Assembly (NCBI GenBank): GCA_050701375.1
Contig: JBOHFC010000266.1
Location: 1 to 57,036, forward strand
Source: Pseudonocardiaceae bacterium
GTDB taxonomy: Bacteria > Actinomycetota > Actinomycetes > Mycobacteriales > Pseudonocardiaceae
DNA: 57,036 nucleotides
Direction: 5' to 3'
The notes under the pieces were generated by a model. It was not told the origin of the DNA, did no database searches, and worked only from the letters and a program-made list of their open reading frames with translations. This document shows positions 11,182-50,828 of the stretch, in pieces; the first letter of the stretch is position 1, and every line of letters starts with the position of its first letter. Position numbers and translations under genes: made by a program.

Positions 11182-11209
11182 GCGAAGCCTCCTTGGGCGG
11201 ATCATTGGG

Positions 11210-22764: not shown

Positions 22765-23487
22765 ATGATATCCAAGATCGCCGCGCCGTCGTCGATGTGT
22801 TGCGCGGAAAGGGCTGGTTTGAGCGATCCTTCGAAGTTTGCTCGACTTGCCACGTCTGGGGACTCTCCTCCCATGAGCTCGATGCTTGACTTCGATGAAG
22901 CCAGGACGGGGGTGCACGTTCGGAAGGATCGGTTGCTCCTACCGGATGAGATGCCGTTCGAGGCATGGCGTGAGCTCGGGTCCCGGGTCGCCTTGATCGC
23001 GAATTGCTCCGCCTGGTGGCTCGGCGACTGGCTCCTCTACGGCGAGCAGAACTACGGTGCTCGTTACGAGCAGGCAGTCGCCGATACCTCGTTGAGCTAT
23101 CAGACCTTACGGAACTACGCCTGGGTGGCGAGGACATTTCCCGTGTCTCGTCGACGGGACACGCTACGCTTCGGTCACCACGTCGAAGTGGCCGCGTTGC
23201 CCGAGGACGAGCAGGACATATGGTTAGCCCGGGCTGAACAGTTGGCTTGGTCTTGCAACAAGCTACGGCGAGCATTGCGGGCGGCCAAGCTGGCCAACCA
23301 GCGAGCATCCATCGACGACGGGACAACCCAGATCAGGGTAGTGAAGATTGACGTGCCGGCCGAGCGACACGACCGTTGGCGGTCCGCTGCCGCGCAGCAA
23401 CATCGTTCTGTGGCAGACTGGGTCATCGAGACACTCGACCATGTAGCAAGCGAGGAATTGAGTACACGAGACAACATGGCGCGATAA
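22765..23487 (+). CDS. LmbU-like cluster-situated transcriptional regulator
   Basis: AWWLGDWLLYGEQNYGARYEQA.....LSYQTLRNYAWVARTFPVSRRR..LRFGHHVEVAAL....Q..WL.RAEQ..WS.NKLR resembles the LmbU/NovE/HmtD regulator family as I remember it. It contains two TTA codons. Confidence 0.65.
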   Translation: MISKIAAPSSMCCAERAGLSDPSKFARLATSGDSPPMSSMLDFDEARTGVHVRKDRLLLPDEMPFEAWRELGSRVALIANCSAWWLGDWLLYGEQNYGARYEQAVADTSLSYQTLRNYAWVARTFPVSRRRDTLRFGHHVEVAALPEDEQDIWLARAEQLAWSCNKLRRALRAAKLANQRASIDDGTTQIRVVKIDVPAERHDRWRSAAAQQHRSVADWVIETLDHVASEELSTRDNMAR

Positions 23488-24081
23488 GCCTTGCCTGACA
23501 ATTGATATCTCAGGCACCGCTGGTGCTGGAACCGACCGGGATCAATGAAGATCTCCCACACAGCTCGTTATTGTCGGTCACGATACCGTCCGCTGGCGTA
23601 GACGGGAAGCCTGCGTGCTGTGACTTGCGGACAAAATGCACGCGCCTCGGCTGGTCGACCTCTCCGGTGCGATCGGCAACGATATGAGTAATTGGCCAAT
23701 CCAGTTGGTGCAGTCTGTCCATAGCATCTCCTCGCTGTATGAACCACCCAAGATCCTTGATTGACAGGCCGAGGATGACAGCGCCGCACTCGGGTCTTTG
23801 CTTCGGCAAACTTCATGTCAGCGTTGACACATTGGTCAGGGTCGATTATGTTCGAGCCTGCTCGATATGTGTTCCTATCGTGTAAGTGAAGAAGGTTGAC
23901 GGTGAACATTCTCATCCGATGACCGAGCTGCTCATCTTATGTGAGTTTACGCTGCCCGTGCAAGCATCGTTGAGCCTCGACAATCAGGTAATAACCGTGA
24001 GTCGACAAAGTTGATCTTGAATCGTCAGGAACTGAAGCGGCCCATTTCTCTGGCATCGCGGCCACTGAGGGTTCGAGGATG

Positions 24082-24119
24082 CGTATGTCGTCGGCGCAGC
24101 TGTGCAGCTGCGACATACG
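24082..24119. promoter_or_regulatory. Imperfect stem-loop / dyad in the AT-rich P450 upstream region
   Basis: cgtatgtcg-tcgg-CGCAGCTG-tg-CAGCTGCG-acatacg has an 8-bp inner stem, a 6-bp outer stem and one bulge. It sits about 105 nt upstream of ATG 24226. Confidence 0.3.
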
Positions 24120-24225
24120 TCATCGACACGCCAAGAAAACATGCTGTAACGGTTCCAGAGCGAAACCAGCTGTGACTTAAGAGGGGTCGCCGACATCCAG
24201 CAAACGATCATTAAGGAGGGGACAT

Positions 24226-25455
24226 ATGCCTGACTCGACCGCCACGACTAGCCGGCCCGGTTTCCACTTCGACCCGAGCGCGGCGGGATTCGATGTCGAC
24301 CCATTTCCGACCTATGCCTACATGCGGGAGCACGAACCGGTTTACTGGTGGCCGCAGCAACAGGGCTGGATCGTGACCCGGTACGACGACGTGGTCATGC
24401 TGCTCAAGGACCCCCGGTTCAGTGTCGAGTTCCGGTATTACGGCCCGGACGAGCTGCCCGATGACCAGCTCAACCCGCACCAGTTGCTGACCAGGTACGG
24501 CATGTTCTGGATGTCCGACGAGAACCACGACCGGGTCCGCGCGACCGCCGCGCCCCTCTTCGGGGCCAGATCCGTCGCGGCATTGCGGCCACAGGTCCAG
24601 AGCGTCGTCGACGACATTCTGCACGATGCGGAGGGACGCGCGGACTTCGATATCGTCATGGATTTCATTCTCGGCTATCCGGCGCAGGCCATCACCACAC
24701 TGCTGGGCATTTCGGGCGAACGGCGTAAGGAGTTCCTGCGGTTCGCCAGCTCGATACTCGACGCGTTCTACCCGCCGATCGACCTGGCCGGCTACGACGA
24801 GAGGATCTCGTACCTGCCGCAGGGCGTGGCGCTGGTCGACGAGCTGATCGAGCAGGACTGCCTGCGCCCGCGCGGCGGCCTGCTGACCAGGCTGATCGAC
24901 GCCGGGCGCGACGATCGCGGGCTCAGCCGCAAGGAACTGCTGGGCATGGTCGCGGTCATCATCTCGGCGGGCAGCGAGCCGACCCGTCACCTGGCGAGCT
25001 TCACCCTGTACAACCTGCTGCGCCATCCCGACCAGCTGCGCATCCTACGTGCCGAGCCGCGCCTGCTGGGCAACGCGGTAAACGAGGTTGGCCGGTACGA
25101 CAGCATGGGCAAGCTGAACTTTCCCCGGTTCCCTCGGCAGGACGTCGAGATCCGCGGAGTGACCGTCCGGGCGGAGCAGCCAGTGTACGGCGTGTTCGCC
25201 AGTGCGCAGCGTGATCCGGCGGTCTTCCCCGACCCGGACCGCTTCGACATCCGTCGCGACCTTCGGCGCAGCCTGCTATGGAGCCAGGGACCGCACAACT
25301 GCCTTGGCCACGCGCTGGCGCAGCTGATCGTCGAGGTGGCGGTAGAGACCTTCCTGCGCCGGTTCCCCCGCGCCCGGCTGCGCGGTGGCCCCGTCTACAC
25401 GCGGGACACCTTTTTCCGCAAGATGATCTCGCTGCCGGTCGACTTGGCGGGATGA
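24226..25455 (+). CDS. cytochrome P450
   Basis: ExxR and Cys pocket WSQGPHNCLGHALA. An AAGGAGGGG RBS lies 5 nt upstream of the ATG. Confidence 0.95.
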   Translation: MPDSTATTSRPGFHFDPSAAGFDVDPFPTYAYMREHEPVYWWPQQQGWIVTRYDDVVMLLKDPRFSVEFRYYGPDELPDDQLNPHQLLTRYGMFWMSDENHDRVRATAAPLFGARSVAALRPQVQSVVDDILHDAEGRADFDIVMDFILGYPAQAITTLLGISGERRKEFLRFASSILDAFYPPIDLAGYDERISYLPQGVALVDELIEQDCLRPRGGLLTRLIDAGRDDRGLSRKELLGMVAVIISAGSEPTRHLASFTLYNLLRHPDQLRILRAEPRLLGNAVNEVGRYDSMGKLNFPRFPRQDVEIRGVTVRAEQPVYGVFASAQRDPAVFPDPDRFDIRRDLRRSLLWSQGPHNCLGHALAQLIVEVAVETFLRRFPRARLRGGPVYTRDTFFRKMISLPVDLAG

Positions 25456-27983
25456 CCGGCATGCCTGAGAACGAGTCCCCGGGTCGAAAGTCGAGCCGCA
25501 AGGCCGTTGTCGTGGGCGCTGGCCCGGTCGGATGCCTCACGGCCCTCGTGCTGAGCAGGCGTAGCTATACCGTCGAGGTGTACGAGAAGCGGCCGCACTT
25601 CCTCCGCCGAGGCATCGTGGAGCAAGGCCGCACTGTCAACCTGTCTCTGTCCCCCAGGGGTCTGCACGCGCTGGCCGCGTACGGTCTGGATGCCGAGTTC
25701 GCTGGGGCCGCCGTCCCGATGGACAGGCGTGCGTTCCACGGCGTCGACGGCCGACCGCTGACAACGAGGTACGGCGCCCCGGACTGGCACACGTACTCGA
25801 TCGGCCGTAACGACCTCAACCTGATGCTCATGCGCGCGGCGGAACGGGTACCTTCGGTCCGGTTCACGTTCGACGCGAAGTGCACGGACGTCGGTTTCAT
25901 GGACCGCACAGCCACATTCGACATCGCCGACCGAGGCCGGAGACGGGTCGGTTACGACCTGCTCGCCGGAGCAGACGGCGCCTATTCGGCGGTGCGCCGG
26001 CGAATGGCCGCCGCCGGGCTGACCACCTTCACGGTACGGGAGCTGGAATCCACCTACCGCGAACTTGTGCTCCGCCCGGCGGCGGACGACGCGGACCTGA
26101 CCCGCTCAGCGATCCATGTCTGGCCACGCGGCAGGTTCTTCATGGTCGCACTGCCCAACCGCGACGGTTCCCTGCGCGCCACACTCGTACTGCCGTCTGA
26201 GGCCCCGGACAGCAATATCCAGCTGCGCCACCGTGATGACCTCGATCGGTTCTTCCAACGGTATTTCCCGGACGCCGCAGGGATCCTGGACAACGTCGGG
26301 GACGGACTGCCCCCGGTCAACCGCATCTCCGTCGTGTCCTGCAGCCAGCTTTCCCATGCGGACTCCGTGCTGCTGCTGGGCGACGCCGCACACACCCTGG
26401 CTCCGTTCCTGGGACAGGGCGTCAACGTCGGGCTGGAGGACTGCCTCTCTCTCGGTGTGCTGCTGGAGAAGTACCGCGACGACCAGCGCCTGGCGATGGC
26501 GGAGTACGAGCGGGAGCGACGCGCCGAGGGCGAGGCGGCAGCCACTCTCTCGCTGTCCAACTACGTAGAACTCAGTGGCACGGCCGGTGAGCATGCCCTG
26601 CCGTCCGATTCCCCGGCCACCGCGGACCACGGCTTGCCCGCGGCAACGTGGATCGAATTCCCCCTCGCCGTGATGGTGAACTTCCTCGGCCTGTCCTACC
26701 GGGAAGTCCTCGACAGGGGCCGCGCTGCGGCGCACCACCCTCCGGTCGAAGGCGGCAGAAAGGTAGGGGCTGTGACCGACGACCGTACCCCCGCCCAAAT
26801 CATGCACTGGCAAGACGACCGGACCGACGCACGCGGGTGGCTGGTCATCGACCGCCTTCTCAACGGTGTCTCCGGCGGCGGGCTGTTCATGCACCCGGGG
26901 GCGACCTACGAGGAGGTCGCGGATCTGGCCACCACTATGTCATTAAAGAACACCATCCAGGAGCCGCAGTTCGGCGGCGGCAAGGGCGGGATCCGGTTCG
27001 ATCCGCACTCACCGGCCGCGGTCGGGGTGCTGCGCCGGTTCATGCTGGCACACCGGGAGGTGATCGAGCACCAGTGGAGCACCGGTGGGGACCTCTACAC
27101 CAGCAACGAGGTGATCGAACGGATCGCCCGCGAGGACCTGGGGCTGCCGTCCGCATTCGTGGCACTCGCCACCATGCTCAGCCGGCGCTATGACATCCCC
27201 TCCCAGGCGGTGACCATGTCCAACCGGATCGCCACGCCGTGGAACGAGTACTTCTCCCTGGGGGAGGCAGCAACCGGGCACTCCGTCGCCGAGTCCGTCC
27301 GGGTGGTAGCGGCGGACCGGCCGCGGGTCGTCGTCCAGGGCTTCGGGACCGTCGGCTCCAGCCTGGCGCACTTCCTCACCGTGTCGGGCATCGGCACTGT
27401 CGCCGGGATCTGTGAGCAGGACGGCTGGCTGTATTGCCCGGACGGCATCGACGTGGCGAAGCTGCTGCGGCGCAGGGCATCAGTCCGACACAAGCAGCCC
27501 GCGTTCGCCCGGCTGCTCGGGACTGACCTGCCCCGGGGTTGGCACTGGACACCTCGCCGCCCAGGACAGACCGATGAGGACATGCTGACCGAGCTTACCG
27601 CGGCGACCCGCGCGGACGTTATCAGTCCTTGCGCAACAAGGTATGCGCTGACCCGTACGGTGCTGGAGGCGTTCGCCGACAGCGGCGGCAGGTACGTCGT
27701 CTGCGGCGCGAACAACGCACTGGCCTCGGCCGCGCTCGCCGAGGAGTTCGGCCGACGTGGTGTGATCGTCGTACCCGACTGGGTCTCCAACGCCGGCACC
27801 GCCATCCTCTTCGCCGAGATCCTCAAGACCCCGGTCTGGCAGGACGGGACCAAGGACCGGATCTTCGCCACGATCACCGAACGCATCACACGGTTTCTCA
27901 GCAACAACGGGCCGGCCGTCGGTTTCGACGTGCCCGCGGCGGCCGGCCGCGGCGAACACACCGGGAGTGGGGTAGGACCTTGA
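25452..27983 (+). CDS. Fusion protein: KMO/VioC-like FAD monooxygenase (N) joined to Glu/Leu/Phe/Val-type amino-acid dehydrogenase (C)
   Basis: ATG 25452 overlaps the P450 stop (ATGA). N-domain: VVVGAGPVGC, DLLAGADGAYSAVR, LLLGDAAHTLAPFLGQGVNVGLED. C-domain: QFGGGKGGIRFD catalytic-Lys loop and VVVQGFGTVGS NAD(P) fold. The frame is continuous. Confidence 0.85.
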   Translation: MTGMPENESPGRKSSRKAVVVGAGPVGCLTALVLSRRSYTVEVYEKRPHFLRRGIVEQGRTVNLSLSPRGLHALAAYGLDAEFAGAAVPMDRRAFHGVDGRPLTTRYGAPDWHTYSIGRNDLNLMLMRAAERVPSVRFTFDAKCTDVGFMDRTATFDIADRGRRRVGYDLLAGADGAYSAVRRRMAAAGLTTFTVRELESTYRELVLRPAADDADLTRSAIHVWPRGRFFMVALPNRDGSLRATLVLPSEAPDSNIQLRHRDDLDRFFQRYFPDAAGILDNVGDGLPPVNRISVVSCSQLSHADSVLLLGDAAHTLAPFLGQGVNVGLEDCLSLGVLLEKYRDDQRLAMAEYERERRAEGEAAATLSLSNYVELSGTAGEHALPSDSPATADHGLPAATWIEFPLAVMVNFLGLSYREVLDRGRAAAHHPPVEGGRKVGAVTDDRTPAQIMHWQDDRTDARGWLVIDRLLNGVSGGGLFMHPGATYEEVADLATTMSLKNTIQEPQFGGGKGGIRFDPHSPAAVGVLRRFMLAHREVIEHQWSTGGDLYTSNEVIERIAREDLGLPSAFVALATMLSRRYDIPSQAVTMSNRIATPWNEYFSLGEAATGHSVAESVRVVAADRPRVVVQGFGTVGSSLAHFLTVSGIGTVAGICEQDGWLYCPDGIDVAKLLRRRASVRHKQPAFARLLGTDLPRGWHWTPRRPGQTDEDMLTELTAATRADVISPCATRYALTRTVLEAFADSGGRYVVCGANNALASAALAEEFGRRGVIVVPDWVSNAGTAILFAEILKTPVWQDGTKDRIFATITERITRFLSNNGPAVGFDVPAAAGRGEHTGSGVGP

Positions 27984-28840
27984 TCCGCAAGAACAGGACG
28001 CTGGAACTGATCAGGTGCGGCGAGCCCGCGGTCGGTACCTGGCTGCAGCTGCACAGCGTGCACGCCGCGCGGCTGCTGGTGGCACAGGGCTTTCACCGGT
28101 GGATGCTGGTTGACTTCGAGCACACACCGGTCGACCACACCACCGCCACGCACATCTTTGCCACCATCTCCGACCTCAGCCGCGGCGAGATCACCCCGCT
28201 GGCGCGGGTGGCGGCCGGTTCGATCGAGCACATCAAGCAGGCGCTGGACGCGGGTAGCCAGGGCGTTATCGTGCCCATGGTCAACACCGCGCGGGAGGCG
28301 GAGGCCGCCGTCCGGTACGCCCGGTTCCCACCTATCGGGGTGCGCGGAGCCGGCGGACTGGCGCCGCACCTGGGATTCGGCGTCAACCGGCCGACCTACC
28401 TGGCCGAGGTGAACCGGGAGACCCTGGTCGGTGTGCAGATCGAGGCGGTGGAAGGGTTGGCCAACGTCCGCGAGATCGCCGCGGTCGACGGCGTCGACCT
28501 GGTCTTCGTGGGGCCGTTCGATCTGCACATGGCACTCGAGCTGCCATCAAGGGTATGGAGCACCGATCCGGACTTCCTGCGGGCGGTGCAGGAGATCACC
28601 CTCGCGGCCAAGGAAGCCGGCAAACCGCTGGGCACCCTGTGCGCCGAGGCGAAGGGCGCGCGGGAACGGCTCAGCGAGGGATTCACCTTCGTCGGGATGG
28701 CCAGCGACGCGCACGTGATGCTGACCTATGCCGGCCGCCAGTACGGCGAGTTGTACGGGATCAATGAGCCGGAGGAGACCTGGTGCAACGTGTCCAACCT
28801 GGACCGTCTGTCGGACTCACTCCGCGGTCTGCCGCGCTAG
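27980..28840 (+). CDS. HpcH/HpaI-family class II (divalent-metal) 2-oxo-acid aldolase
   Basis: G.W......HAARLLVAQGF.WMLVDFEH.P.D......I......G.ITPLARV......IKQALDAGSQGVIVPMVNT..EA.AAVRYARFPP.G.RG. The start is called at TTG 27980 (TTGA overlap with the upstream stop), so the exact start is uncertain. Confidence 0.85.
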   Translation: MIRKNRTLELIRCGEPAVGTWLQLHSVHAARLLVAQGFHRWMLVDFEHTPVDHTTATHIFATISDLSRGEITPLARVAAGSIEHIKQALDAGSQGVIVPMVNTAREAEAAVRYARFPPIGVRGAGGLAPHLGFGVNRPTYLAEVNRETLVGVQIEAVEGLANVREIAAVDGVDLVFVGPFDLHMALELPSRVWSTDPDFLRAVQEITLAAKEAGKPLGTLCAEAKGARERLSEGFTFVGMASDAHVMLTYAGRQYGELYGINEPEETWCNVSNLDRLSDSLRGLPR

Positions 28841-30424
<1,584 letters not shown>

Positions 30425-30483
30425 GCCGGCGGTGCCGGGCTCGTGCTTGGTCCGGCACCCAGACCACGCAGGGAAGGGGTCGC

Positions 30484-31080
30484 ATGACGACGAACCCGCG
30501 CTCCGGACAGTCCGTCACCAGGTGCAGTCCATCGCAGATGCGGGCCATGATGGCGGGCTTCCCGACCGGCGTCAGCATCGTGACGGCGATGGAGCCCGCC
30601 GGACCGCCCAGAGGCATGACGTGCTCCTCGCTGTGCAGCGTCACGCTGACGCCGCCCACGCTCCTGATCTGTCTACGGGGGCAGAGCCCCACCCTGTATG
30701 CCATCCGGACCAGCGGGACGTTCGCCGTGAACCTCCTTCACGCCGAGGCCCGCGCGACAGCCCAGCTGTTCGCCTCCAGTGCGGTAGACAGGTTCGACCG
30801 GGTGCTGTGGCATGCGGACCCGGACAGTGCGGGCCCGCACCTCCCGCAGGACGCGCACCTCGTCGGCGACTGCCGTGTCATCGACGTCCAGTTCGTCGGT
30901 GACCACGCCGTCGTGTTCGGCGAGGTCGTGCGGGTCATCCAAGGACAGACACAACCGCCGCTGCTCTACGGACTTCGGCACTACGCGACCTGGCACGCAT
31001 CCGTCATGCACGACGACGTCGACTCGAGCGAGCGAGCCGCATCCACCTGCCCTGCCGCAGCACTCCGCCTGGAACGTTGA
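30484..31080 (+). CDS. NAD(P)H:flavin reductase (halogenase partner, RebF/PrnF-like)
   Basis: MAGFPTGVSIVTA....GPPRGMTCSSLCSVTL.PPTLLICL is a flavin_reduct domain signature. Confidence 0.9.
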   Translation: MTTNPRSGQSVTRCSPSQMRAMMAGFPTGVSIVTAMEPAGPPRGMTCSSLCSVTLTPPTLLICLRGQSPTLYAIRTSGTFAVNLLHAEARATAQLFASSAVDRFDRVLWHADPDSAGPHLPQDAHLVGDCRVIDVQFVGDHAVVFGEVVRVIQGQTQPPLLYGLRHYATWHASVMHDDVDSSERAASTCPAAALRLER

Positions 31081-31090
31081 GGAGCAGACG

Positions 31091-32275: not shown

Positions 32276-32417
32276 TCCATTCCGGTGCACGGCACATCCC
32301 TCCATCAGGAGCTCTTTCCGGGCGGTCGGTTCGCCAATCAGATCGACCGTTGGACGGCGTGCACGAGAACGAGAACGCTGCGTTTGAGCCAGCGACAGGA
32401 TCTGGAGGCGGTCACGC

Positions 32418-32891: not shown

Positions 32892-32931
32892 CAGCCCTAC
32901 GAACTCTGTGTCTTGGTAGCAGGATTGGTGG

Positions 32932-35392: not shown

Positions 35393-35453
35393 CACCACCG
35401 CCTTTTCCGGAATCGAGCAACGTCCGGGTCGGCAATTAATTTCGTTCTGGGGA

Positions 35454-35930: not shown

Positions 35931-35947
35931 AAGTTGCATCGTCGCCA

Positions 35948-41828: not shown

Positions 41829-41834
41829 CGCGTG

Positions 41835-42995: not shown

Positions 42996-43138
42996 CGGCA
43001 ACCACCCCGTCACTCACCGAAATACCGACTTCACCCTCCAATGGAAGAATAAGCTTTAGCAAATCCGGTGAATTCACATTCCAGTGATCCCCCAGCAACC
43101 CTCGACCCAACGCCACTACCGCCCCCTTGTTGGTTCAG

Positions 43139-43225
43139 CGCAACCACATTTACGGAGCCGATTTAACCAGCAGCCTCGCCGGGCCCACAACCGAACGCAT
43201 CCACCGGCGACCCACAACCGCACAT
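43139..43225. promoter_or_regulatory. Conserved leader/promoter element A (paralogue of 47578-47665)
   Basis: caaccacatttacgg ... CCACAACCG (43185) ... CCACAACCG (43212) cacatacg. It has the same order and spacing as the element upstream of the ACP gene. An extra GAATTCACATT copy lies at 43070-43080. Confidence 0.5.
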
Positions 43226-43378
43226 ACGAATGTACGCCCAGCATTACGTGACGGCCGAGTCACGAAACGTGAGCCTCGATAACCAGGCACCAACCACACG
43301 ATCAAGAAATTCGCACCGAACCTGACGTAGTATGTCCGCGTAGTGTGTCCGCCCGGTTTGATGGATAAACGGGACCGC

Positions 43379-44080
43379 TCAGGCGGTGAGCACGACCGCC
43401 AAATGCGCACTGGGATGGGGCAGTGAGTGCACCCGCCACAAGCGGCCCGACGCGGTCAGCCGGTCCGGAAGTGGATGCAGGGGGCGGGCGAGGCCTTCTC
43501 CGGTCGCCTTGGTCAGCGCTTCCCAGCGCACCCAGGCAGCCAGAATGTTCGCGTCAGCCCGGTTCGCTCCCGACGGCAGCACCATCGCAGCGAGCTCGTC
43601 GGCATGGTGGATCGCTCGCGGACGCTCGATGTCCACCCCGAGTCGGCGGTTTGCCGCCGCAGCGACGGCGGTGTAGCGCCCGGAATGACTGAGACTGTGA
43701 AACCACTGGTCATTCCCGTCCGCGATCGGACTCGGATAACCCGTACTGTCCGCCGAGAAGGTCAGCTCACGCGGATCCGCGCCGAGACAGGCTGCCAGCA
43801 GCGACCGCCGCAGCGCGTGCGCCAGCACGTAGGACTCTCGTTTGCCGTCGCGATACCGAAGAGCCTTGTCCTTTTCCCTGCCGTCGAGCAACTCCAGCAG
43901 CTCGCCGACCTTTTCCCGGCTGACGCCGACTTCCGCGGTCCAGACCCACACCTGCGACGGCAGCCCCGCACCCTCGAACTCGAGCAACTCCCGGCAGCTC
44001 GCCTCCCACCGCTTTGGCCATTCCCCCACGCCCAAGGCCTCCGCCGGTATTCGTCGGCCTGGTCGGTTACCTGGCTTCAC
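43379..44080 (-). CDS. 4'-phosphopantetheinyl transferase (Sfp-type)
   Basis: LGVDIERP and WVRWEALTKATG motifs. 233 aa. Confidence 0.85.
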   Translation of the reverse strand: MKPGNRPGRRIPAEALGVGEWPKRWEASCRELLEFEGAGLPSQVWVWTAEVGVSREKVGELLELLDGREKDKALRYRDGKRESYVLAHALRRSLLAACLGADPRELTFSADSTGYPSPIADGNDQWFHSLSHSGRYTAVAAAANRRLGVDIERPRAIHHADELAAMVLPSGANRADANILAAWVRWEALTKATGEGLARPLHPLPDRLTASGRLWRVHSLPHPSAHLAVVLTA

Positions 44081-44089
44081 GGCGCGTTA

Positions 44090-44581
44090 CTACCCGTGTT
44101 TGCCGGCTTCCAGGTACTCCTTGGCATTGGCCAGTTCTTCAGGGACAGCCTTGTCGAGCCAACGGGTGAACAGAGGGTCGAACAGCCAGGCGAAAGGCTT
44201 CCTGAAGTCGAAGTTCAGCGCTCGAGTGACCAGGGTACCGTCCTCGGTCTCTTCGCAGGAGAAGAACCCGGTGAACGTCATCAGTGCGTCGGTCCAGGCG
44301 GGCACGCCGGAAATGTCGATGCGGTTACCCTTCCGCACCACGCGCTGGGTAGTACTGGGGCCGGGCAGGCCAAGCACCTTAGGGGAGAAGTGCAGGAGCA
44401 CACCTTCGCCGTCCTCGGCGTCTTTGATCGAGTGAATTTTGCCGAGTTTCTCGTCAACCTTGCGATATTCACGCAGGTCCATGACGAAATCAAGGATTTC
44501 TTTGGACGGTCGATGAACAACTATCTTGGCCTCACCGTAAGCCATTTCCGCTTCACCTTTCTGTGGCTGGATCAGTGCCAT
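44090..44581 (-). CDS. SRPBCC-fold protein (polyketide cyclase/dehydrase or lipid-binding family)
   Basis: 163 aa. Size and pattern (VVHRP..EILDFVMDL..Y...D........) fit Polyketide_cyc2-like proteins. This is family-level only. Confidence 0.6.
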   Translation of the reverse strand: MALIQPQKGEAEMAYGEAKIVVHRPSKEILDFVMDLREYRKVDEKLGKIHSIKDAEDGEGVLLHFSPKVLGLPGPSTTQRVVRKGNRIDISGVPAWTDALMTFTGFFSCEETEDGTLVTRALNFDFRKPFAWLFDPLFTRWLDKAVPEELANAKEYLEAGKHG

Positions 44582-44644
44582 TAAAGTAATTCTGGCCCTG
44601 TCGTCAATAGCGTTGACCGGTCGATTCGGCTACGGACCGGCGGA

Positions 44645-45346
44645 TCAGGCGGACACCACCCGGTAGATATTAACCCGGTCGTCCAATCCCAGTGGCGCTG
44701 GGTTCATACGACCGGTGGCCGCTAGCAGGAAATCCCGCGGATCGCCATCGACCAGGTCACCGCCGCCCCGGATATCGAGTGTCTCGATCCCGTCCAGTGC
44801 CAGTGTCGCCGGCCCCCAGCCCCACAGGCCCAGCGTCTCGGCCACATGCACCACACTCGCTCGCAGCCCGCCGCCCCGGTCTGGTTCGCGACCGATCGCG
44901 CTGAGCACATCGTCGCCGTGTACGTACAGTTCATACCAAAGTACGAGCACGGCCCGGCGGAGCGGGCCGGGGAATCCGCCGGGCGCCCTGCCGAGCCACG
45001 CCTCGTCGGTGAACCCGTCCAGCAATGTCCCGCACAACCGGCCGGCACGCTCAAGTTCCTTCGCCACCTTCCCCGGCGGCCGGCCCCGGCGGTCGGTGGC
45101 CTGCCCGGCGGTGACCTCGGGCAGCCCCTGGCCCTCCATCCGGCCCACCGCGACATCGCTGAACAACCCGGCGACGTGACCGCACACGTCCCTCACCTGC
45201 CAGCCCGTGCACCGGCTCGGTGTGGTCCACTCGGCGTCGCCCAGTGAACGTAGCAGGCGCACGAAATGGCCGCAGGACTCGGCGATCCCGGCAATCACCT
45301 CGGTACGCGGAAGCACTAGCGGCGGCTCGATCTGCCTGGCTCTCAC
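44645..45346 (-). CDS. DinB/mycothiol-dependent maleylpyruvate-isomerase-N-terminal-domain family protein
   Basis: F..LLRSLGDAEWTTPSRCTGWQVRDVCGHV is typical of the TIGR03083 family. The start is placed at GTG 45346 (GTGA overlap with the upstream stop). Confidence 0.65.
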   Translation of the reverse strand: MRARQIEPPLVLPRTEVIAGIAESCGHFVRLLRSLGDAEWTTPSRCTGWQVRDVCGHVAGLFSDVAVGRMEGQGLPEVTAGQATDRRGRPPGKVAKELERAGRLCGTLLDGFTDEAWLGRAPGGFPGPLRRAVLVLWYELYVHGDDVLSAIGREPDRGGGLRASVVHVAETLGLWGWGPATLALDGIETLDIRGGGDLVDGDPRDFLLAATGRMNPAPLGLDDRVNIYRVVSA

Positions 45347-46050
45347 CGGGCACCACCGGCGGCCAGGGTCGGCGGGTCGCCGCCAAATTTGGCCAGACAT
45401 TCCTCCAACGCGGTGAGTGCGGTCTTTCCAGCCTGTCCGGCCACGTCGGCGGTCGCGATTATCGCGGGCAGCACGTCCGGTTCCGCGCCCGTGGTGAGCG
45501 CCAGTGCGGCGGCCCGGCTGCTGGTCCGTCGGGAAGGGTTGCGCTGCTCATCCTCCGGCGGATCGTAGGCGACCACCAGCGCGAGCTTCGCGGCGCCGCT
45601 CGCCAGGTCCGCGCCCGCGGTGACCAGTGCCTGCCACAACGCTTGCGCATCACCGACCAGATGCACGTTCGGACCGCGGAATCCCTCCACAATGGACACC
45701 TGGCAGAGCGCGTTATTGGCCAGCATCCGGAGCCAGCCGGTGGGGTTGGCGTCCTCCAAGATATGCCGGCCAAGCCGGGCGTCGTCCTCGGCAGACCCGT
45801 TCGGGGTGAACGGCGGATCCGGCTGCGCGCCGTCCCAGCCGCTCACCGTGTACAGCGCGACATCCGCCGGATCGCAGCACGGATTCCGGCGGTAGGCGGT
45901 CGCAGCGGCGACGAACGGTGCCAGTGAAGCGCCGTCGAGGAAACGTAGCACCTTGCGGGGAGCGAACTCCTTGGCCAGCGCCCGCAGATCCTGCTCGTCA
46001 TGCTCGATGGTCGAATAGCTGGCGGCGATCATCATATTGTCGATACTCAT
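45343..46050 (-). CDS. short ketosynthase-like partner (CLF-like, no catalytic Cys)
   Basis: 235 aa with NNALCQVSIVEGFRGPNVHLVGD, a paralogue of 41127-41828. ATGA overlap with the KS2 stop. Confidence 0.7.
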   Translation of the reverse strand: MSIDNMMIAASYSTIEHDEQDLRALAKEFAPRKVLRFLDGASLAPFVAAATAYRRNPCCDPADVALYTVSGWDGAQPDPPFTPNGSAEDDARLGRHILEDANPTGWLRMLANNALCQVSIVEGFRGPNVHLVGDAQALWQALVTAGADLASGAAKLALVVAYDPPEDEQRNPSRRTSSRAAALALTTGAEPDVLPAIIATADVAGQAGKTALTALEECLAKFGGDPPTLAAGGAR

Positions 46051-47213
46051 GCCACCCGCCCGAATATTAGAGACGCGCTGTGCCCGCCGAAACCGAAACT
46101 ATTGCTGAGCACGTGGTGCAGCTCTTTTTCGCGGGAGCCCGACGCCACATAGTCCAGGTCGCACAACGGATCGGGGTGCTTCAGATTGGACGTCGGTGGC
46201 ACCACCGAATTCCGTAGCGCCTGCACCGACAAAGCGGCTTCGATGGCACCGCAGGCGCCCATGGTGTGCCCGAGCTGGCTTTTCGTCGAACTCACCGGCA
46301 CGTCGTCGGCCGCCGCACCGAGCACCGTCCGGATCGCCAGCGTCTCCGACGAGTCGTTGTCCTTGGTACTGGTGCCGTGCGCGTTGATCCAGTCGACGTC
46401 GGTCGCGTCCAGGCGGGCGTCGTCCAGCGCGCCGCGCATGGCGTACTCCAGGCCGAGGCCGTCCGGCGGCGGAGCGAACATGTGATAGGCGTTTTGCCGT
46501 AGTCCGAAACCCTCGGCTACCGCCAGCGGATCGGCGCCGCGCGCCTCGGCGTGCCGTCTGGATTCCAGCACCAGGAAGGCCGCACCCTCAGCGAGCACGA
46601 ACCCGTCCCGGTGGGCGTCGAAGGGACAGGATGCCTCCTCCGGTGGGCACTCCCGGGTGCTCATCACGTATAGGCTGGAAAAGGACATGTACTCGAACGG
46701 CACGATCAACGCGTCACAGCCGCCGGCGAGCACCACCTCCACCTGCCCGGTCTGGATCAGCCGCATGCCGACGCCGATCGCCTGTGCGCTCCCGGCGCAG
46801 GCGCCATACGGGGCACTGTATCGGCCGGTGCCGGCCACTTCGGCGACCTGCTCGGCAATATCCCGGATGCCGATCAGCTTGCCGGTGTCACCGCCGCGCG
46901 GCAGCCGGTTCTCACCGTGGTTGGCCACCAGCGAGACATCGACACTACCGGCTTCCCCAGCGGGGAGCTCGGCGTTGTTCAGTGCGGCACGAACCGCGTG
47001 CAGCCCGTATTCGAGCGACAGCGAGTAGTCCGGTAGCGGACCTTCCCGGCCGGGCACCATCCCGGCGACCCGACTGGACGACGAGTAGGTGGGAAACCGT
47101 TCTAGCTTGCGCACGCGAGAACTGCCGTCGGCCACGCATCGCCAAGTATCTTCGACGGTCCAGCCGCCGGGGCTGACCACCCCGAGGCCGGTGATCCAGA
47201 CGCCGTCAGACAT
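46047..47213 (-). CDS. beta-ketoacyl-ACP synthase (KS)
   Basis: YGACAGSA (Cys), INAHGTSTKDND and LGHTMGACG. It overlaps the ACP 3' end by 8 nt. Confidence 0.9.
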   Translation of the reverse strand: MSDGVWITGLGVVSPGGWTVEDTWRCVADGSSRVRKLERFPTYSSSSRVAGMVPGREGPLPDYSLSLEYGLHAVRAALNNAELPAGEAGSVDVSLVANHGENRLPRGGDTGKLIGIRDIAEQVAEVAGTGRYSAPYGACAGSAQAIGVGMRLIQTGQVEVVLAGGCDALIVPFEYMSFSSLYVMSTRECPPEEASCPFDAHRDGFVLAEGAAFLVLESRRHAEARGADPLAVAEGFGLRQNAYHMFAPPPDGLGLEYAMRGALDDARLDATDVDWINAHGTSTKDNDSSETLAIRTVLGAAADDVPVSSTKSQLGHTMGACGAIEAALSVQALRNSVVPPTSNLKHPDPLCDLDYVASGSREKELHHVLSNSFGFGGHSASLIFGRVA

Positions 47214-47550
47214 CGGCCACCGTCCGTTCCGCGATGAAGTCCACCACGTTGCCTACCGAAAGCCGCCGACTCACCTCGGCCAATTGGGAATCCGACAGCA
47301 CACCGTCCGAACTGACCTTCTCCGGCAGGAACCGCGCAAGCTCGGTCAGTAGCTGCTTGACTTCACCGTCATTCACCGAAATTCCGAATTCGCCCTTCAG
47401 TGAAAGGATAAGCTCCAGTAAGTCCAGCGAGTCCGCATCCAAGTCATCCACCAGCAATGAATCCAACTCGATCGTATCGGCGTCGATTTCCAGATGTTTC
47501 GCCATCTGTACTCGCAGCCGCTCGAAAATCTGCCCGCGATCCAGTGTCAT
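47206..47550 (-). CDS. acyl carrier protein with C-terminal extension
   Basis: LDADSLDLLELI phosphopantetheine-attachment DSL motif. 114 aa, against about 80-90 for typical ACPs. A GGGAGCGG RBS is present. Confidence 0.85.
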   Translation of the reverse strand: MTLDRGQIFERLRVQMAKHLEIDADTIELDSLLVDDLDADSLDLLELILSLKGEFGISVNDGEVKQLLTELARFLPEKVSSDGVLSDSQLAEVSRRLSVGNVVDFIAERTVADV

Positions 47551-47577
47551 CGGCCGCCGCTCCCTACCGGTCTTGTA

Positions 47578-47665
47578 GAATTCACATTTACGTCACACCG
47601 AGCCAACCACCACGACCGCCGCAGCCACAACCGCATCCCGCACCGCGCGCCCACAACCGCAGATA
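47578..47665. promoter_or_regulatory. Conserved leader/promoter element B (paralogue of 43139-43225) in the ACP / MaoC divergent region
   Basis: GAATTCACATTTACG (47578-47592) ... CCACAACCG (47625) ... CCACAACCG (47651) cagatacc. Confidence 0.5.
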
Positions 47666-47806
47666 CCCCGGCCATGCCGCGCTGCCGGAGGAGTACCGGG
47701 CCCGGGACCGACTCATTGCACCGGGTGATGGAGGCGATGGTGTTCGTGATCGACACCGACGCGCGGAGCGCCGCAGGAAAAGCGGGTTAAGTGGCCAGAC
47801 CCGCAC

Positions 47807-48751
47807 TTGTCCGGCCGGTACGCGCGAAAACCGGGGTATCGTCGGCGCCGAATCAACGGCACCGGAGACGTTGGGGAACAGCAGTTGTCCACACGCGCGT
47901 CACTGATCGGCAAGAAATACTTCCTGCCCGCGCAGGAAGTGGCCGAGAGAGACGCCGCCGCCTATGCCGAGGCGACCGGCGACGACCCCGCGCGTTCAAT
48001 CGACCGGGGTTTCGCGCCGCCAATGTACGCAGTCCGGCTGATCGCCGGAGTGTGGCGCTCGGTGTACCAGGACCCCCAACTGGAGACCGCCGATCAACTC
48101 GTCCTGCATGCCGAGCAACGCATGCTGTTCGTGGACGACCTACGGCTCGGTACGCAGGTACACGTCAAAGGTTGGGTCAAGGCCATGATCAGTTTCGGCT
48201 TCGGTGACGCCGCCCTGATCCGCACCGTTGTCGCCGACGAGGCCGGACGGGCACTGGTTTCCATGGAATGCACGCTAGTGATCCAGGGCAGTAGCAACTG
48301 CCCACCCGACCGCCGTCGCGCCAGGGTGCTCAGCCGTGCCGAGCCGGTGTGCACAGAATCCCGGCTGCTCGACGAAAACGCACCCCAACGCTACGCCGAC
48401 GCCGCCGACGATCACAATCCGCTGCACCTCGACGACGAAATCGCCCGCACGGCGGGCCATCCCTCGCGCATCGTGCATGGAATGTGCACGCTCGCTACTG
48501 GTTTCGCGGCACTGAGCGGACAGCTGCTGCACGATCCCGACGAGCGAGTGCGATACCTGCGCACCCGATTCACCCGGCCGGTCCTGCCGGGCAGCGAGGT
48601 GACATTCTCGGCGCACACCACCGGCGCGGCACGGACCTACGCGATTTCCGCCGGCTGCCACGGGCGCCCCGTGCTGAAGAACACCTGGCTTCGGCTGGCC
48701 GATCGAGCCCCATGGCGGCAGGCAATCCGCTGCACCCCGAAGTGTCCGTAA
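47807..48751 (+). CDS. double hot-dog MaoC-like (R)-hydratase/dehydratase
   Basis: The C-terminal half has YADAADDHNPLHLD.E.A...G...RIVHGMCT (MaoC dehydratase motif). The N-terminal half is a hot-dog-like pseudo-repeat. The start codon is uncertain. Confidence 0.8.
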   Translation: MSGRYARKPGYRRRRINGTGDVGEQQLSTRASLIGKKYFLPAQEVAERDAAAYAEATGDDPARSIDRGFAPPMYAVRLIAGVWRSVYQDPQLETADQLVLHAEQRMLFVDDLRLGTQVHVKGWVKAMISFGFGDAALIRTVVADEAGRALVSMECTLVIQGSSNCPPDRRRARVLSRAEPVCTESRLLDENAPQRYADAADDHNPLHLDDEIARTAGHPSRIVHGMCTLATGFAALSGQLLHDPDERVRYLRTRFTRPVLPGSEVTFSAHTTGAARTYAISAGCHGRPVLKNTWLRLADRAPWRQAIRCTPKCP

Positions 48752-50244
48752 CAGGCTCGAACCGGCCGCTGGTGGTAGCTCTGGACAGCGCGCTCGAAGC
48801 GGACCGGGAACTACTGGGCGGCAAGGGAAGTGGCCTGGTCCGGATGGCCAGACTCGGAATCCCGGTGCCGCCCGCCTTTACGCTCACCACCGCGGCCTGC
48901 CGCCGATACCAGGACGACGGTCGACGACTCTCCGACGCGCTGTGGTCCGAGGTGCTGGAGGCGCTCGGCGCCTTGGAGGACAAGACCGGCCAACGGTTCG
49001 GTGGCGTCCCGCCGTTGCTGGTCTCGGTACGGTCCGGTGCCCCGGTGAGCATGCCCGGCATGATGGACACCCTGCTCAACGTTGGGCTGAACCAGCCTGC
49101 CTTGACCTGGCTTGGTCTCGGCGAGCCGACTGAGTCGGGCACTGGCTGGCTCTACGAACTGGCCTCCGGGATCCGGCAGTCGTTCGCCGACGCACCGTTC
49201 GCCGTGCTGAACGCCGAGCGCGGGACCGACGCCGGCGCCGAAGCGATGGCCCAGTTGCGCTGGGCCATAGCGCGGATCATAGACTACTGGCAAAACCGGC
49301 GCGCTGAGGCCTACCGCCGGGCCAATGGCATTTCCGTGGAGCTTGGCACCGCGGTCACCGTGCAGGCTATGGTGTTCGGCAATCGCGACGACGAATCCGG
49401 CACCGGCGTGTACATCACCCGCAATCCGGTGACCGGCGCCAACGAGCCTTATGGAGAGTGGCTGCCGCAGGCGCAGGGCGAAAGCCTGGTCTCTGGCGAG
49501 CAGAGCCCACTCGACCTGGGCATGCTCGGCGCGACTATGCCGGGGGTACACCGTGAACTCCTCGCCGCCGGCCGGCGGCTGGAAACCTGCGAGCGGCATC
49601 CGGTGGAGATCGAATTCACTGTGGAGTCCGGCCGGCTGTACCTCCTGCAGTCAAGGTGCTCCACCCGCACCCCTGTCGCGGCCGTCCGCTGGGCCGTCGC
49701 TCTGGTCGACGAGAAACTGATCGGGATCACGGACGCGGTGCGCCGAGTGGACGACGACACGCTGCGCAAGCTCACCGAGGTGGGTGAGCTGGTCGAGGCC
49801 ACCGGCCGCATACTCGCGCGGGGCACCGGGGTGGTGCCCGGCTGGTGTTCTGGGCTGGTGGTCGACGACGCGGACAAGGCGGACCGGCTGGTCGAAGCGG
49901 GTCAACAGGTGATCCTGGCGCGGCCGAGTACCAGCCCGCGTGACATCCACGGCTTCCTCGCCGCGGCCGGCGTGATCACCGAACGCGGTGGCAGCACCTC
50001 GCATGCTGCGGTGGTAGCCCGGCAGATCGGCGTGCCGTGTGTGGTCGGCTGTGACGATGGCGCCGTCGCCGCGGTAACCGGCCGGGTGGTCACCATCGAC
50101 GGGACCCACGGCGTCATCTACGACGGTGCGGTGCCGGACGAAGCCGCCGAGAAACAGTCAGCGCAGCTCCCCGAGTTGGCCCGGCTGCTGCGATGGAAAT
50201 ATGCCACGGCCCGTTTGCCCACGACCAGGAGTAGGAAATTATGA
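48712..50244 (+). CDS. PPDK/PEP-synthase N-terminal ATP-grasp plus swivel His domain protein, lacking the PEP/pyruvate-binding TIM barrel
   Basis: LLGGKGSGLVRMARLGIPVPPAFTLTT, SVRSGAPVSMPGMMDTLLNVGLN, and ERGGSTSHAAVVARQIGVPCVVGC. The ORF ends about 40 aa after the His domain. The start is ATG 48712, or GTG 48742. Confidence 0.85.
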   Translation: MAAGNPLHPEVSVTGSNRPLVVALDSALEADRELLGGKGSGLVRMARLGIPVPPAFTLTTAACRRYQDDGRRLSDALWSEVLEALGALEDKTGQRFGGVPPLLVSVRSGAPVSMPGMMDTLLNVGLNQPALTWLGLGEPTESGTGWLYELASGIRQSFADAPFAVLNAERGTDAGAEAMAQLRWAIARIIDYWQNRRAEAYRRANGISVELGTAVTVQAMVFGNRDDESGTGVYITRNPVTGANEPYGEWLPQAQGESLVSGEQSPLDLGMLGATMPGVHRELLAAGRRLETCERHPVEIEFTVESGRLYLLQSRCSTRTPVAAVRWAVALVDEKLIGITDAVRRVDDDTLRKLTEVGELVEATGRILARGTGVVPGWCSGLVVDDADKADRLVEAGQQVILARPSTSPRDIHGFLAAAGVITERGGSTSHAAVVARQIGVPCVVGCDDGAVAAVTGRVVTIDGTHGVIYDGAVPDEAAEKQSAQLPELARLLRWKYATARLPTTRSRKL

Positions 50245-50828
50245 TCACGACCAGGGAAGTGCTGCGCAGTCTCCGGCTAAAGGGGCGGGCCGGCACCGCC
50301 GACATCGCCGCGGCCAGCGGGATAGATGAGTCGGCCACGCAGGAGATCCTGGACCGCGGCACCGAGAACGGCTTGGTGAATCACCGCAGCGGCCGGCGTG
50401 GTGGTTGGATGCTGACCGCGCAGGGGAACGAAGAGGTCATCAGGCTGCTGGCGGAGGAACGTGCCGGGCTCGCCATCACCGACGCTGCCACCGCTTACGA
50501 CGGTCCCTTCCTGAAACTCAACGCTGAGTTCAAGGAACTGTGCACGCGCTGGCAGCTAGCCGGCGGGGACGCCACGGCCGCCGTGGAGGTCACCGGCGAG
50601 TTCGCGAGGATTCACGACCGCAACCGGGAACTGCTGGGCCAGTTCGCCAGCTCTATCCCCCGGTTTGATCGGTATTGTGCCCGGTTCGAGGCGGCTTACC
50701 AGCGGTTCCTAGACGGCGAGACATCCGCCTTGGTCCAGCCGCTTTCCGGCTCCTATCACGACGTGTGGATCGAGCTGCACGAGGATTTGCTGCTGCTGCT
50801 GGACCGCGCGCGCATAGAAGATGACTAA
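50241..50828 (+). CDS. hypothetical protein with N-terminal winged-helix-like segment
   Basis: 195 aa with ATGA overlap to the preceding gene. The N-terminus ..LRLKGRAGTADIAAASGIDESATQEILDRGTENGLV looks MarR/wHTH-like. No family was recognised. Confidence 0.45.
   Translation: MITTREVLRSLRLKGRAGTADIAAASGIDESATQEILDRGTENGLVNHRSGRRGGWMLTAQGNEEVIRLLAEERAGLAITDAATAYDGPFLKLNAEFKELCTRWQLAGGDATAAVEVTGEFARIHDRNRELLGQFASSIPRFDRYCARFEAAYQRFLDGETSALVQPLSGSYHDVWIELHEDLLLLLDRARIEDD

Follow-up and report, generated by a model that had tools for sequence, protein, structure and literature searches.

A halo-tryptophan operon beside a polyketide, dikinase and UbiA module in a Pseudonocardiaceae genome: a probable composite of two gene sets with separate histories

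Background

Positions 22765-50828 of a Pseudonocardiaceae contig of 57,036 nucleotides (nt), which was analysed at its full length and is called the window below (G+C content ~66%), encode an unusual assemblage of enzymes: a tryptophan (Trp) halogenase operon, a reducing polyketide synthase (PKS) of the type II kind, a UbiA-family intramembrane transferase and a split kinase. Do these genes make up one biosynthetic pathway, or do they record the meeting of two gene sets that evolved apart? An earlier note on this DNA took the region for a single hybrid cluster. Comparison with related loci points the other way: the region rather probably brings together two modules that evolved separately, a judgement that includes the mechanism proposed below for the first of them. 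Module A (32932-50828) combines the PKS with two reductases, the kinase components, UbiA and a flavoprotein, and module B consists of the halo-Trp operon with its regulator (about 22727-32898).

Protein families were called by Pfam, NCBIfam and PDB searches of the window proteins, with the flanks of the region examined alongside it, and related loci were analysed over ±10 kb around the query gene. Most of the families named in the earlier note withstood these searches (LmbU, the P450s, the KMO-ELFV fusion, HpcH, the halogenase, the flavin reductase, the FAD protein and UbiA); the 13-gene minus-strand block was recovered in the order given there, and the frequent 4-nt overlaps between stop and start codons of neighbouring genes support the translational coupling that it proposed. 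As it had also stated, no nonribosomal peptide synthetase, type I PKS, thiamine diphosphate enzyme or StaD/VioB family turned up in any family scan of the window proteins. One conserved gene (35466-35930) had escaped its gene list.

Two modules with separate distributions

The window proteins are 76-92% identical to their Amycolatopsis nigrescens counterparts at the amino acid (aa) level, and this relative reveals the outline of the exchange. In a blastn comparison, window positions 22551-32986 (10.4 kb, comprising the LmbU gene and the halo-Trp operon) replace a 2.4-kb segment of the A. nigrescens locus (L001, 12386-14752) that encodes a tryptophan 2,3-dioxygenase (TDO), a short-chain dehydrogenase/reductase (SDR) and a TetR regulator, with collinear flanks on both sides. 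The two junctions share no 10-mers, direct or inverted, and no att-like sites were found at them.

Module A occurs repeatedly without module B. The contexts of the UbiA clade came from A. nigrescens, Saccharothrix sp. S26 and Nocardiopsis alborubida, and a genome scan added a further seven genomes (Amycolatopsis xylanica, Lentzea alba, two Streptomyces and three metagenome-assembled genomes (MAGs)). All 12 close UbiA loci in these 10 genomes carry the same set in a tblastn matrix: acyl carrier protein (ACP), ketosynthase (KS), a short KS partner resembling a chain-length factor (CLF), ketoreductase (KR), malonyl-CoA:ACP acyltransferase (MAT), the paired reductases R1 and R2, the dikinase component PEPut, UbiA and the flavoprotein. 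The family thus represented spans at least five actinomycete genera. The halogenase, KMO-ELFV, HpcH, the second P450 (P450b), DUF1772 and LmbU are found within 10 kb of UbiA in none of the 12 loci. TDO, in turn, is encoded in 10 of them, either by a stand-alone gene that follows the one for the flavoprotein or as an N-terminal fusion to the PPDK_N-swivel protein; since relatives of module A nearly always carry it, Trp chemistry seems to be part of the core pathway.

A cassette of ACP-KS-CLF-KR-MAT-R-R-PEPut, joined by MaoC, recurs in three distant loci (L024-L026), each time in different surroundings: genes for sugar nucleotides and glycosyltransferases; an unrelated 389-aa UbiA protein with an AMP-ligase; and a P450 and a flavin monooxygenase with a second KS/CLF/DinB set. 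MMPL lipid exporters adjoin several members of the UbiA clade. In L024 (2097-3884 and 12398-17679), the cassette adjoins genes for a 595-aa halogenase-like flavoprotein, an amidase and a heme-oxygenase-like protein and is followed by the sugar-nucleotide/glycosyltransferase block, a hint that different lipid-like end products are made from the chains it supplies.

Module B recurs without module A in two other contexts. In a Pseudonocardiaceae MAG (L027 and L020), it is present at 94% nt identity in the order P450a-fusion-HpcH-halogenase-Fre-ferredoxin-P450b (frameshifted)-DUF1772; in L027, homology to the window ends at position 32898, and fragments of phage integrases come next, together with a Tn3-type DUF4158 transposase. 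A metagenome contig (L028) shares 90% nt identity over 6.8 kb and encodes LmbU, P450a, separate KMO-like and ELFV proteins, HpcH, the halogenase and Fre, with a divergent P450b and a ferredoxin inverted upstream and a terpene synthase and a GMC oxidoreductase downstream. No module A genes are present on L027 (19.5 kb) or L028 (16.4 kb). Overall, module B is 84-94% identical between contexts at the nt level. Among the loci examined, the adjacency of A and B is confined to this organism; an independent assembly (L023) repeats the junction exactly, as R2-PEPut-small gene-UbiA-flavoprotein-DUF1772-P450-Fre-halogenase.

Because module B has its own regulator and recurs without module A in two contexts, it appears to have moved recently as a self-contained unit. 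Its identity between contexts, compared with ~80% nt identity of module A to its nearest relative, likewise suggests a recent arrival. The arrangement in the window would be most simply explained by the recent replacement of the TDO-SDR-TetR segment of module A by module B, and we rank an insertion or replacement event that was independent of function above functional integration as the cause of the adjacency, a preference that goes modestly beyond an even call. Separate occurrence of the halves had been named in the earlier note as an outcome that would count against its single hybrid cluster; with module A alone at 12 loci in 10 genomes and module B alone twice, that proposal is weakened.

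The halo-Trp operon and the case for a joint pathway

The halogenase of module B matches Trp 5-/6-halogenases in the PDB (8fov, 5hy5, 5lv9, 6nsd and 2wet) at E values of 1e-215 to 1e-252; the GxGxxG and WxWxIP motifs and the catalytic K75 are all there, and a Flavin_Reduct gene lies downstream. Since these matches are to halogenases of free Trp, chlorination of free L-Trp to 5- or 6-chloro-L-Trp can safely be predicted as the first step of the module, the regiochemistry being either C5 or C6. The KMO-like hydroxylase, the amino-acid dehydrogenase, the class II aldolase and the P450s would then process the chlorinated Trp, in an order that is not derivable from sequence. PyrH, SttH, Th-Hal and Tar14 are the closest known systems, and module B resembles them in its full set of catalytic motifs and adjacent flavin reductase but differs in the enzymes coupled to the halogenase: two P450s, an HpcH aldolase and the KMO-like and ELFV pair. 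This downstream set matches no described pathway in the literature searched.

The fusion of a monooxygenase resembling kynurenine monooxygenase (KMO) to an ELFV amino-acid dehydrogenase is near-unique among 5.8 billion clustered proteins: one relative is 91% identical, and the next aligns at 37% over the KMO half only, being a genuine KMO within a TDO/3-HAO/ACMSD/kynureninase operon. The top NCBIfam match of the fusion is VioC, under cutoff. Because the ELFV half resembles glutamate dehydrogenase only distantly, its substrate is not inferable. The two parts form one open reading frame (ORF) in the window, L020 and L027 and two genes in L028 (5996-8514), the difference being one of frame in the linker; a recent fusion would account for it, as would an error in sequencing. 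The aldolase matches the NCBIfam models for HpaI, GarL and their relatives at 1e-40 to 1e-43, under the equivalog cutoff in every case. No TDO is encoded anywhere in the window (tblastn), and no kynureninase or formamidase family turned up in scans of the window proteins; since all three are absent from module B in all of its three contexts, a canonical kynurenine route is unsupported for this module.

The distal part of the operon is variable. A deletion of ~108 bp (window 30995-31080 compared with L020 5617-5810 and L027 7360-7551) has removed most of a 63-aa ferredoxin gene, the final 27 codons of which now extend the flavin reductase ORF in frame; L020 and L027 have an intact 63-aa Fer4 gene. 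P450b is frameshifted in both L020 and L027, and in L028 it is relocated and 62% identical. The membrane protein at the end of the operon, first labelled DUF1772, retains that label at sub-threshold level (Anthrone_oxy, E 0.009), and its gene is absent from the L028 contig. At the proximal end, an LmbU ortholog (84% identical) lies upstream of the same operon in L028. A palindrome of the LmbU type, CGCCGGCG, has 6 matches in the window compared with 9.7 expected and 0 in promoters, an uninformative result.

Could the two modules nonetheless work together? In a genuine hybrid, module B would have been recruited in place of the TDO route to supply a chlorinated, oxygenated Trp-derived acceptor or 2-oxo acid, which UbiA, or the HpcH aldolase acting on a polyketide aldehyde, would join to the polyketide, yielding a halogenated analogue of the family product. 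This is clearly conceivable, if doubtful. The near-constant presence of TDO in relatives of module A, at times fused to the ATP-grasp protein of the dikinase, fits it well, as does the replacement by module B of exactly the TDO-containing segment in a window that has no TDO. Module B also sits between the module A genes and a syntenic luciferase-like gene that recurs with the cassette (L010 and L026), and the best PDB match of P450a is EpoK, the epothilone epoxidase that acts on a polyketide olefin (5e-81; runner-up 1e-50). Class II pyruvate aldolases take aldehydes as electrophiles.

The independent occurrence of each module (B with its own regulator in two contexts without A, and A without B in 10 genomes) argues against such a hybrid, and so do the mobile elements that accompany B elsewhere, the variable or decaying P450b/ferredoxin part (deletion in this genome, frameshifts in L027) and the recent arrival indicated by the nt identities; the LmbU-type palindrome shows no enrichment and does not occur in the promoters of module A, although the scan was uninformative. 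Coupling through the HpcH aldolase, suggested in the earlier note, is unlikely as the ancestral step, the aldolase being encoded by the module that is portable. The other elements of that proposal fared better: transfer by UbiA and reductive release both belong to the conserved core of module A. The link between this core and Trp is real in relatives, by way of TDO, so that a functional hybrid keeps some plausibility.

The conserved core of module A

Under the composite reading, module A is the host. KS2 matches FabF (1e-77), the actinorhodin KS (1e-61) and the ketosynthase of 6kxd (2e-43) in the PDB. The short partners CLF1 and CLF2 have no significant Pfam or PDB match in profile searches (best PDB E value, 0.84); in alignment they resemble the KS N-subdomain with the TAC motif replaced, so that the designation CLF-like, used from the outset, holds as motif-level resemblance only. 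These KS partners of ~230 aa share invariant N113, N114, C117, H131 and G134 (CLF2 numbering) and may constitute a distinct truncated CLF class. No enoyl reductase (ER) family was found in scans of the region and there is no aromatase/cyclase set, the single SRPBCC protein being a subset-specific accessory. R1 and R2 are paired in every cassette examined, both with Rossmann and YxxxK motifs.

The closest parallel is found among the highly reducing, polyene-type type II PKSs in the ishigamide system (Iga11/Iga12, 6kxd), which likewise has a discrete KS with the catalytic triad, a discrete ACP and an iterative KR and dehydratase, and likewise lacks an aromatase/cyclase set and an ER; its Cys-less partner has putative counterparts in CLF1 and CLF2. 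The differences are that the module A partners, at ~230 aa, are about half a normal CLF and without Pfam or PDB matches, that KS2 is nearer to FabF than to Iga11, and that the chain would leave reductively, through two NAD_binding_4 enzymes, and not as an amide or ester. From what is established about these families, the PKS of module A is probably a reducing type II system with an unsaturated product that is set free by reduction.

The order of the PKS genes differs between the window and A. nigrescens. The ACP gene lies directly upstream of KS2 in A. nigrescens (L001, 1866-2210) and upstream of KS1 in the window (47206-47550), and the 365-bp gap before KS2 in the window (43014-43378) holds no gene. 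Since the ACPs that precede different ketosynthases in the two genomes are 92% identical, a local rearrangement is indicated. The 154-aa protein encoded between PEPut and UbiA was found by tblastn in 10 of the 12 close loci at 33-60% identity, and a gene was called at the same place in L003; it has no Pfam or NCBIfam match and no predicted transmembrane (TM) helix.

PEPut, initially read as a PEP-utiliser His-domain protein, does carry the His swivel, but this domain occupies the C-terminus of a 493-aa protein with a substrate-binding domain in front that resembles that of rifampin phosphotransferase (RPH). In an AlphaFold2 (AF2) model built from 42 homologues (pLDDT 85.9, pTM 0.88), the top six Foldseek matches are all RPH over both domains (E 8e-12; query TM-score (TMq) 0.55), the others covering the swivel only. 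The swivel His, H450, is invariant in 42 sequences. A search of 1.84 billion representatives found only 41 clusters of this small family at E<=1e-30, and RPH-length proteins align to both halves of PEPut in the same exhaustive search. Its presumed partner had been described as a PPDK-N-like ATP-grasp protein; the PPDK_N domain is present, but the protein also has its own His swivel (GGSTSH), matching residues 1-515 of PPDK at 1e-89 and lacking the PEP/pyruvate barrel. Most relatives have an unusual fusion in which TDO forms the N-terminal part of the PPDK_N-swivel protein (L002 1-1093, L003 1-817, L005, L006, L007 and L011).

Modelling and domain content lead us to regard PEPut and the PPDK_N protein as a putative two-component small-molecule dikinase of the RPH/HpeHI type, a class whose ATP-dependent phosphorylation of hydroxyls yields AMP and Pi. 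The two-component dikinases HpeHI, CreHI and PpsAB phosphorylate hydroxyls of small molecules with ATP, giving monophosphates (PMC12167813). Module A shares with HpeHI, CreHI, PpsAB and RPH the RPH-type substrate-binding domain, the His swivel and the conserved catalytic His, and with the first three the location of the ATP-grasp domain on a separate protein. Unlike the known members, which serve catabolism or resistance and have phenols or rifampin as substrates, the module A pair is embedded in a PKS operon, and its ATP-grasp partner is PPDK-like, keeps its own swivel and is fused to TDO in relatives.

The UbiA protein belongs to a clade of ~39 proteins at 55-77% identity, beyond which identity falls to 35%. 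Its AF2 model (pLDDT 85.6) is all-helical with the canonical fold, DGGGP synthase, ApUbiA and UBIAD1 being the closest structures (TMq 0.58-0.64); its two Asp-rich motifs, of the kind that binds Mg2+ and diphosphate, have invariant D75, D76, D82 and D85 (a variant of NDxxDxxxD) and D217xxxD221. A profile search of PDB sequences finds UBIAD1 only (E 0.0017). For the flavoprotein coupled to UbiA, the top NCBIfam match is the geranylgeranyl-reductase family and the top PDB matches are the halogenases CndH and Bmp2. We considered and rejected it as a second halogenase: WxWxIP is missing despite those best PDB matches.

From these components, the following route can be proposed. The type II PKS (ACP, KS with a truncated Cys-less partner, KR, MaoC and MAT, without ER) would build an unsaturated acyl-ACP, with the second KS/partner pair and the DinB, SRPBCC and phosphopantetheinyl transferase genes supplementing it in this genome. 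Release by the two NAD_binding_4 reductases would give first an aldehyde and then an alcohol, presumably allylic because there is no ER gene. The dikinase would phosphorylate the chain hydroxyl, UbiA would transfer the activated chain, as a prenyl-like alkyl donor, to an aromatic that in relatives would be Trp-derived through the cluster TDO, and the coupled flavoprotein would tailor the product. We infer this order of steps, the allylic alcohol and the use of the chain as UbiA donor from the gene content. In its fullest form, module A would be a new route to prenyl-like donors: the split RPH-type dikinase, with two swivel domains, would phosphorylate or pyrophosphorylate a polyene alcohol, UbiA would transfer the resulting “pseudo-prenyl” group to a Trp-derived aromatic, and in this strain the halo-Trp operon would switch the acceptor to a chlorinated one. 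We hold this full version tentatively and think it more apt to be wrong than right.

The enzymes of module A could be wired differently, and two such alternatives bear directly on the dikinase and UbiA. In the first, the dikinase would phosphorylate the carbonyl of the polyketide aldehyde, not the alcohol, and so activate it for an electron-rich nucleophile of the indole or pyrrole type, as PigC and RedH do in prodiginine synthesis, and UbiA would add an ordinary isoprenoid drawn from primary metabolism. The C-terminus of PEPut does match the NCBIfam models PigC (9.6e-08) and RedH (1.1e-04), both far under cutoffs (30 bits compared with 1300), and PigC and RedH belong to the same superfamily of PPDK_N, substrate and swivel domains, where activation of a carbonyl or hydroxyl serves C-C bond formation (cf. 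PMC13534948). Furthermore, TDO implies a Trp-derived partner, and a carbonyl activation would dispose of the need to turn a monophosphate into a diphosphate. We nevertheless judge this condensation unlikely, given that the two reductases are invariant in the cassette, which fits reduction to an alcohol, that the structural match of PEPut is RPH, a hydroxyl kinase, and that the loci examined showed no gene for a polyprenyl diphosphate synthase. PigC, moreover, is a single chain that acts on a bipyrrole aldehyde, whereas the region has no prodiginine genes; membership in a prodiginine-type cluster fails on both counts, there being neither a single-chain PigC nor bipyrrole genes.

In the second alternative, UbiA would act like decaprenyl-phosphate phosphoribosyltransferase, with a polyketide alkyl monophosphate as acceptor, phosphoribosyl pyrophosphate (PRPP) or another diphosphate as donor and a lipid-phospho-sugar as product. 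This would suit the monophosphates made by such dikinases (PMC12167813), the sugar-nucleotide and glycosyltransferase genes that follow the L024 cassette and the MMPL lipid exporters next to several clade members. It is nonetheless improbable: the PRPP-using Rv3806c-type structures 8j8j and 8j8k rank 14th-15th for the UbiA model (E 0.03-0.05), by a small margin below DGGGP synthase, ApUbiA and UBIAD1, the profile search retrieves UBIAD1 alone, and the conserved TDO would be left unexplained.

The region could also be an already characterised cluster that has gone unrecognised, such as one for an aurachin-type quinoline, a carbazole or an indole alkaloid. Aurachin biosynthesis combines a type II PKS with AuaA, a UbiA-type farnesyltransferase that acts on a quinoline. 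The likeness extends to the type II KS system, the membrane UbiA, tailoring by a flavoprotein and an aromatic related to anthranilate or Trp, and the combination of these elements in the region recalls the aurachin logic. It stops there: the region has no anthranilate-activating ligase (no AMP-binding protein is encoded in it), its KS partners are truncated, its PKS appears to make a chain rather than a ring, and its UbiA clade is only distantly MenA/UBIAD1-like. Aurachin assembly has no use for a KR, a dehydratase, reductases or a dikinase, the last two being without any counterpart there. Lacking the ligase and a full-length KS/CLF pair, the region is not an aurachin-type cluster. Homologues of its proteins bear generic names only, and the full-text literature, searched without a MIBiG comparison behind it, contains no described counterpart of module A or B and nothing relevant on clusters of A. 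nigrescens, in keeping with the earlier note, which could name none for the whole combination. Identity with a known cluster is, accordingly, very improbable.

Weighing and significance

Several points weigh against the composite reading and the mechanism that it includes. Dikinases of this type make monophosphates, UbiA enzymes use diphosphate donors, and no second kinase is evident; in L024-L026, the PPDK_N gene is absent within 10 kb, which puts the source of the phosphoryl group there in doubt. The exchange of a Trp-metabolising gene for a Trp-modifying operon could reflect selection for functional replacement and not chance. Because the loci reach ±10 kb and L027 and L028 are short, module A could sit just beyond them, and since L020 and L027 are probably one organism, there are only two independent outside contexts for module B. 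The products and activities assigned to the members of both modules are predictions from sequence.

Every family in module A is known, yet its conserved wiring, with a type II PKS, two reductases, a two-component dikinase, UbiA and often a TDO-kinase fusion, appears new to the literature searched, and we consider this host module the more interesting part of the region, above the inserted module B. If UbiA does accept a chain phosphate ester, the donor scope of intramembrane prenyltransferases extends past isoprenoids, RPH-type dikinases gain a biosynthetic role and a family of lipid-like Trp-polyketide metabolites is indicated. The locus catches a very recent module swap, TDO for a halo-Trp operon, and is thus a natural experiment in cluster diversification; it also suggests that, with unusual “hybrids”, a check for a composite origin should precede any proposal of a joint pathway.

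Gene content and flanks

The features of the region and its borders are collected in Table 1. At its right end, the MaoC and PPDK_N genes, divergent from the minus-strand block as first described, are confirmed on the plus strand; the putative regulator that follows them, short of which the related loci end, has weak matches to winged helix-turn-helix (wHTH) families.

Table 1. Genes of the region and its borders, with window coordinates and the matches on which the assignments are based
Feature	Position	Strand	Evidence and remarks
Left flank: saccharopine-DH-like gene and luciferase-like monooxygenase	20295-22584	-, + respectively	81% aa identical to and collinear with A. nigrescens beyond the indel
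LmbU-family transcriptional regulator	22765-23487	+	NCBIfam NF038070, 6.7e-63, 211.7 bits (cutoff 125)
Cytochrome P450 (P450a)	24226-25455	+	Pfam p450; heme-ligand Cys motif WSQGPHNCLG
KMO-like FAD monooxygenase fused to ELFV amino-acid dehydrogenase	25452-27983	+	FAD_binding_3, ELFV_dehydrog_N, ELFV_dehydrog
HpcH/HpaI class II aldolase	27980-28840	+	Pfam 1.2e-30
Flavin-dependent Trp 5-/6-halogenase	28883-30424	+	Pfam 3e-138
Flavin reductase (Fre), 3' end fused to ferredoxin remnant	30484-31080	+	Flavin_Reduct 8e-35
Cytochrome P450 (P450b)	31091-32275	+	Pfam p450; best PDB match 3p3l, 2e-40; 394-aa gene call in L023
4-TM membrane protein, weakly Anthrone_oxy/DUF1772-like	32418-32891	+	Four hydrophobic segments; PF08592, sub-threshold
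Flavoprotein coupled to UbiA	32932-34461	-	FAD_binding_3; follows UbiA in 12/12 close loci
UbiA-family intramembrane transferase	34448-35392	-	Pfam UbiA 58.5 bits (cutoff 34.2)
Small conserved protein, 154 aa, Trp-rich	35466-35930	+	Between PEPut and UbiA genes; 60% identical to A. nigrescens counterpart
Putative dikinase component PEPut, 493 aa	35948-37429	-	RPH-like substrate-binding domain and His swivel; C-terminal PEP-utilizers domain
Second NAD_binding_4 reductase (R2)	37426-38424	-	Pfam; GAGGWVG and YEWAK motifs
First NAD_binding_4 thioester reductase (R1)	38421-39470	-	Pfam 2.2e-26; GATGFLG and YERTK motifs
Malonyl-CoA:ACP acyltransferase (MAT)	39467-40393	-	Acyl_transf_1
Ketoreductase (SDR, KR)	40390-41130	-	adh_short and KR domains; YSASK motif
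Short KS partner CLF2, 233 aa	41127-41828	-	KS N-subdomain-like region without nucleophilic Cys (alignment)
Ketosynthase KS2	41835-43013	-	Ketoacyl-synt N and C domains; GACAS, HGTST, GHT (Cys-His-His triad)
Phosphopantetheinyl transferase, accessory	43379-44080	-	Weak AASDHPPT_N and ACPS matches; 60% ortholog in A. nigrescens
SRPBCC/Polyketide_cyc2, accessory	44090-44545	-	Pfam 5e-09; in a subset of loci
DinB/MDMPI_N, accessory	44645-45346	-	Pfam 1.7e-16; accompanies KS1/CLF1 in L003, L010, L026
Short KS partner CLF1, 235 aa, accessory	45343-46050	-	Weak Ketoacyl-synt_2, 1.5e-4, under cutoff
Ketosynthase KS1, accessory	46047-47213	-	Pfam N and C domains; GACAG, HGTST, GHT (Cys-His-His triad)
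Acyl carrier protein (ACP)	47206-47550	-	PP-binding; DSL motif; 92% identical to A. nigrescens ACP
MaoC-type dehydratase	47939-48751	+	MaoC_dehydratas 1.1e-21; DHNPLH motif; conserved cassette partner
Putative dikinase component PPDK_N (ATP-grasp and own His swivel)	48712-50244	+	PPDK_N 1.2e-34; PEP-utilizers 1.4e-23; GGSTSH
Putative wHTH regulator	50241-50828	+	Coupled to PPDK_N gene; weak Rrf2, IclR-HTH, HTH_24 matches
DDE_5 transposase	50876-51943	-	Pfam 2e-22

The two genes of the left flank are possible members of module A. The DDE_5 transposase at 50876-51943 likely marks the right border. A second DDE_5 transposase is located at 4780-6090 (minus strand), and the two genes bracket the region. 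Given that they share just 31% identity, as different insertion sequence elements would, the region is not a composite transposon. The window contains neither tRNA genes nor Rfam RNA families. Finally, a run of heme-biosynthesis genes at 6857-15087, close to this cluster rich in heme enzymes, encodes a HemL-like class III aminotransferase, uroporphyrinogen decarboxylase, an ALA dehydratase with an N-terminal extension, porphobilinogen deaminase, glutamyl-tRNA reductase and an amine oxidase resembling protoporphyrinogen oxidase; this run is probably housekeeping.

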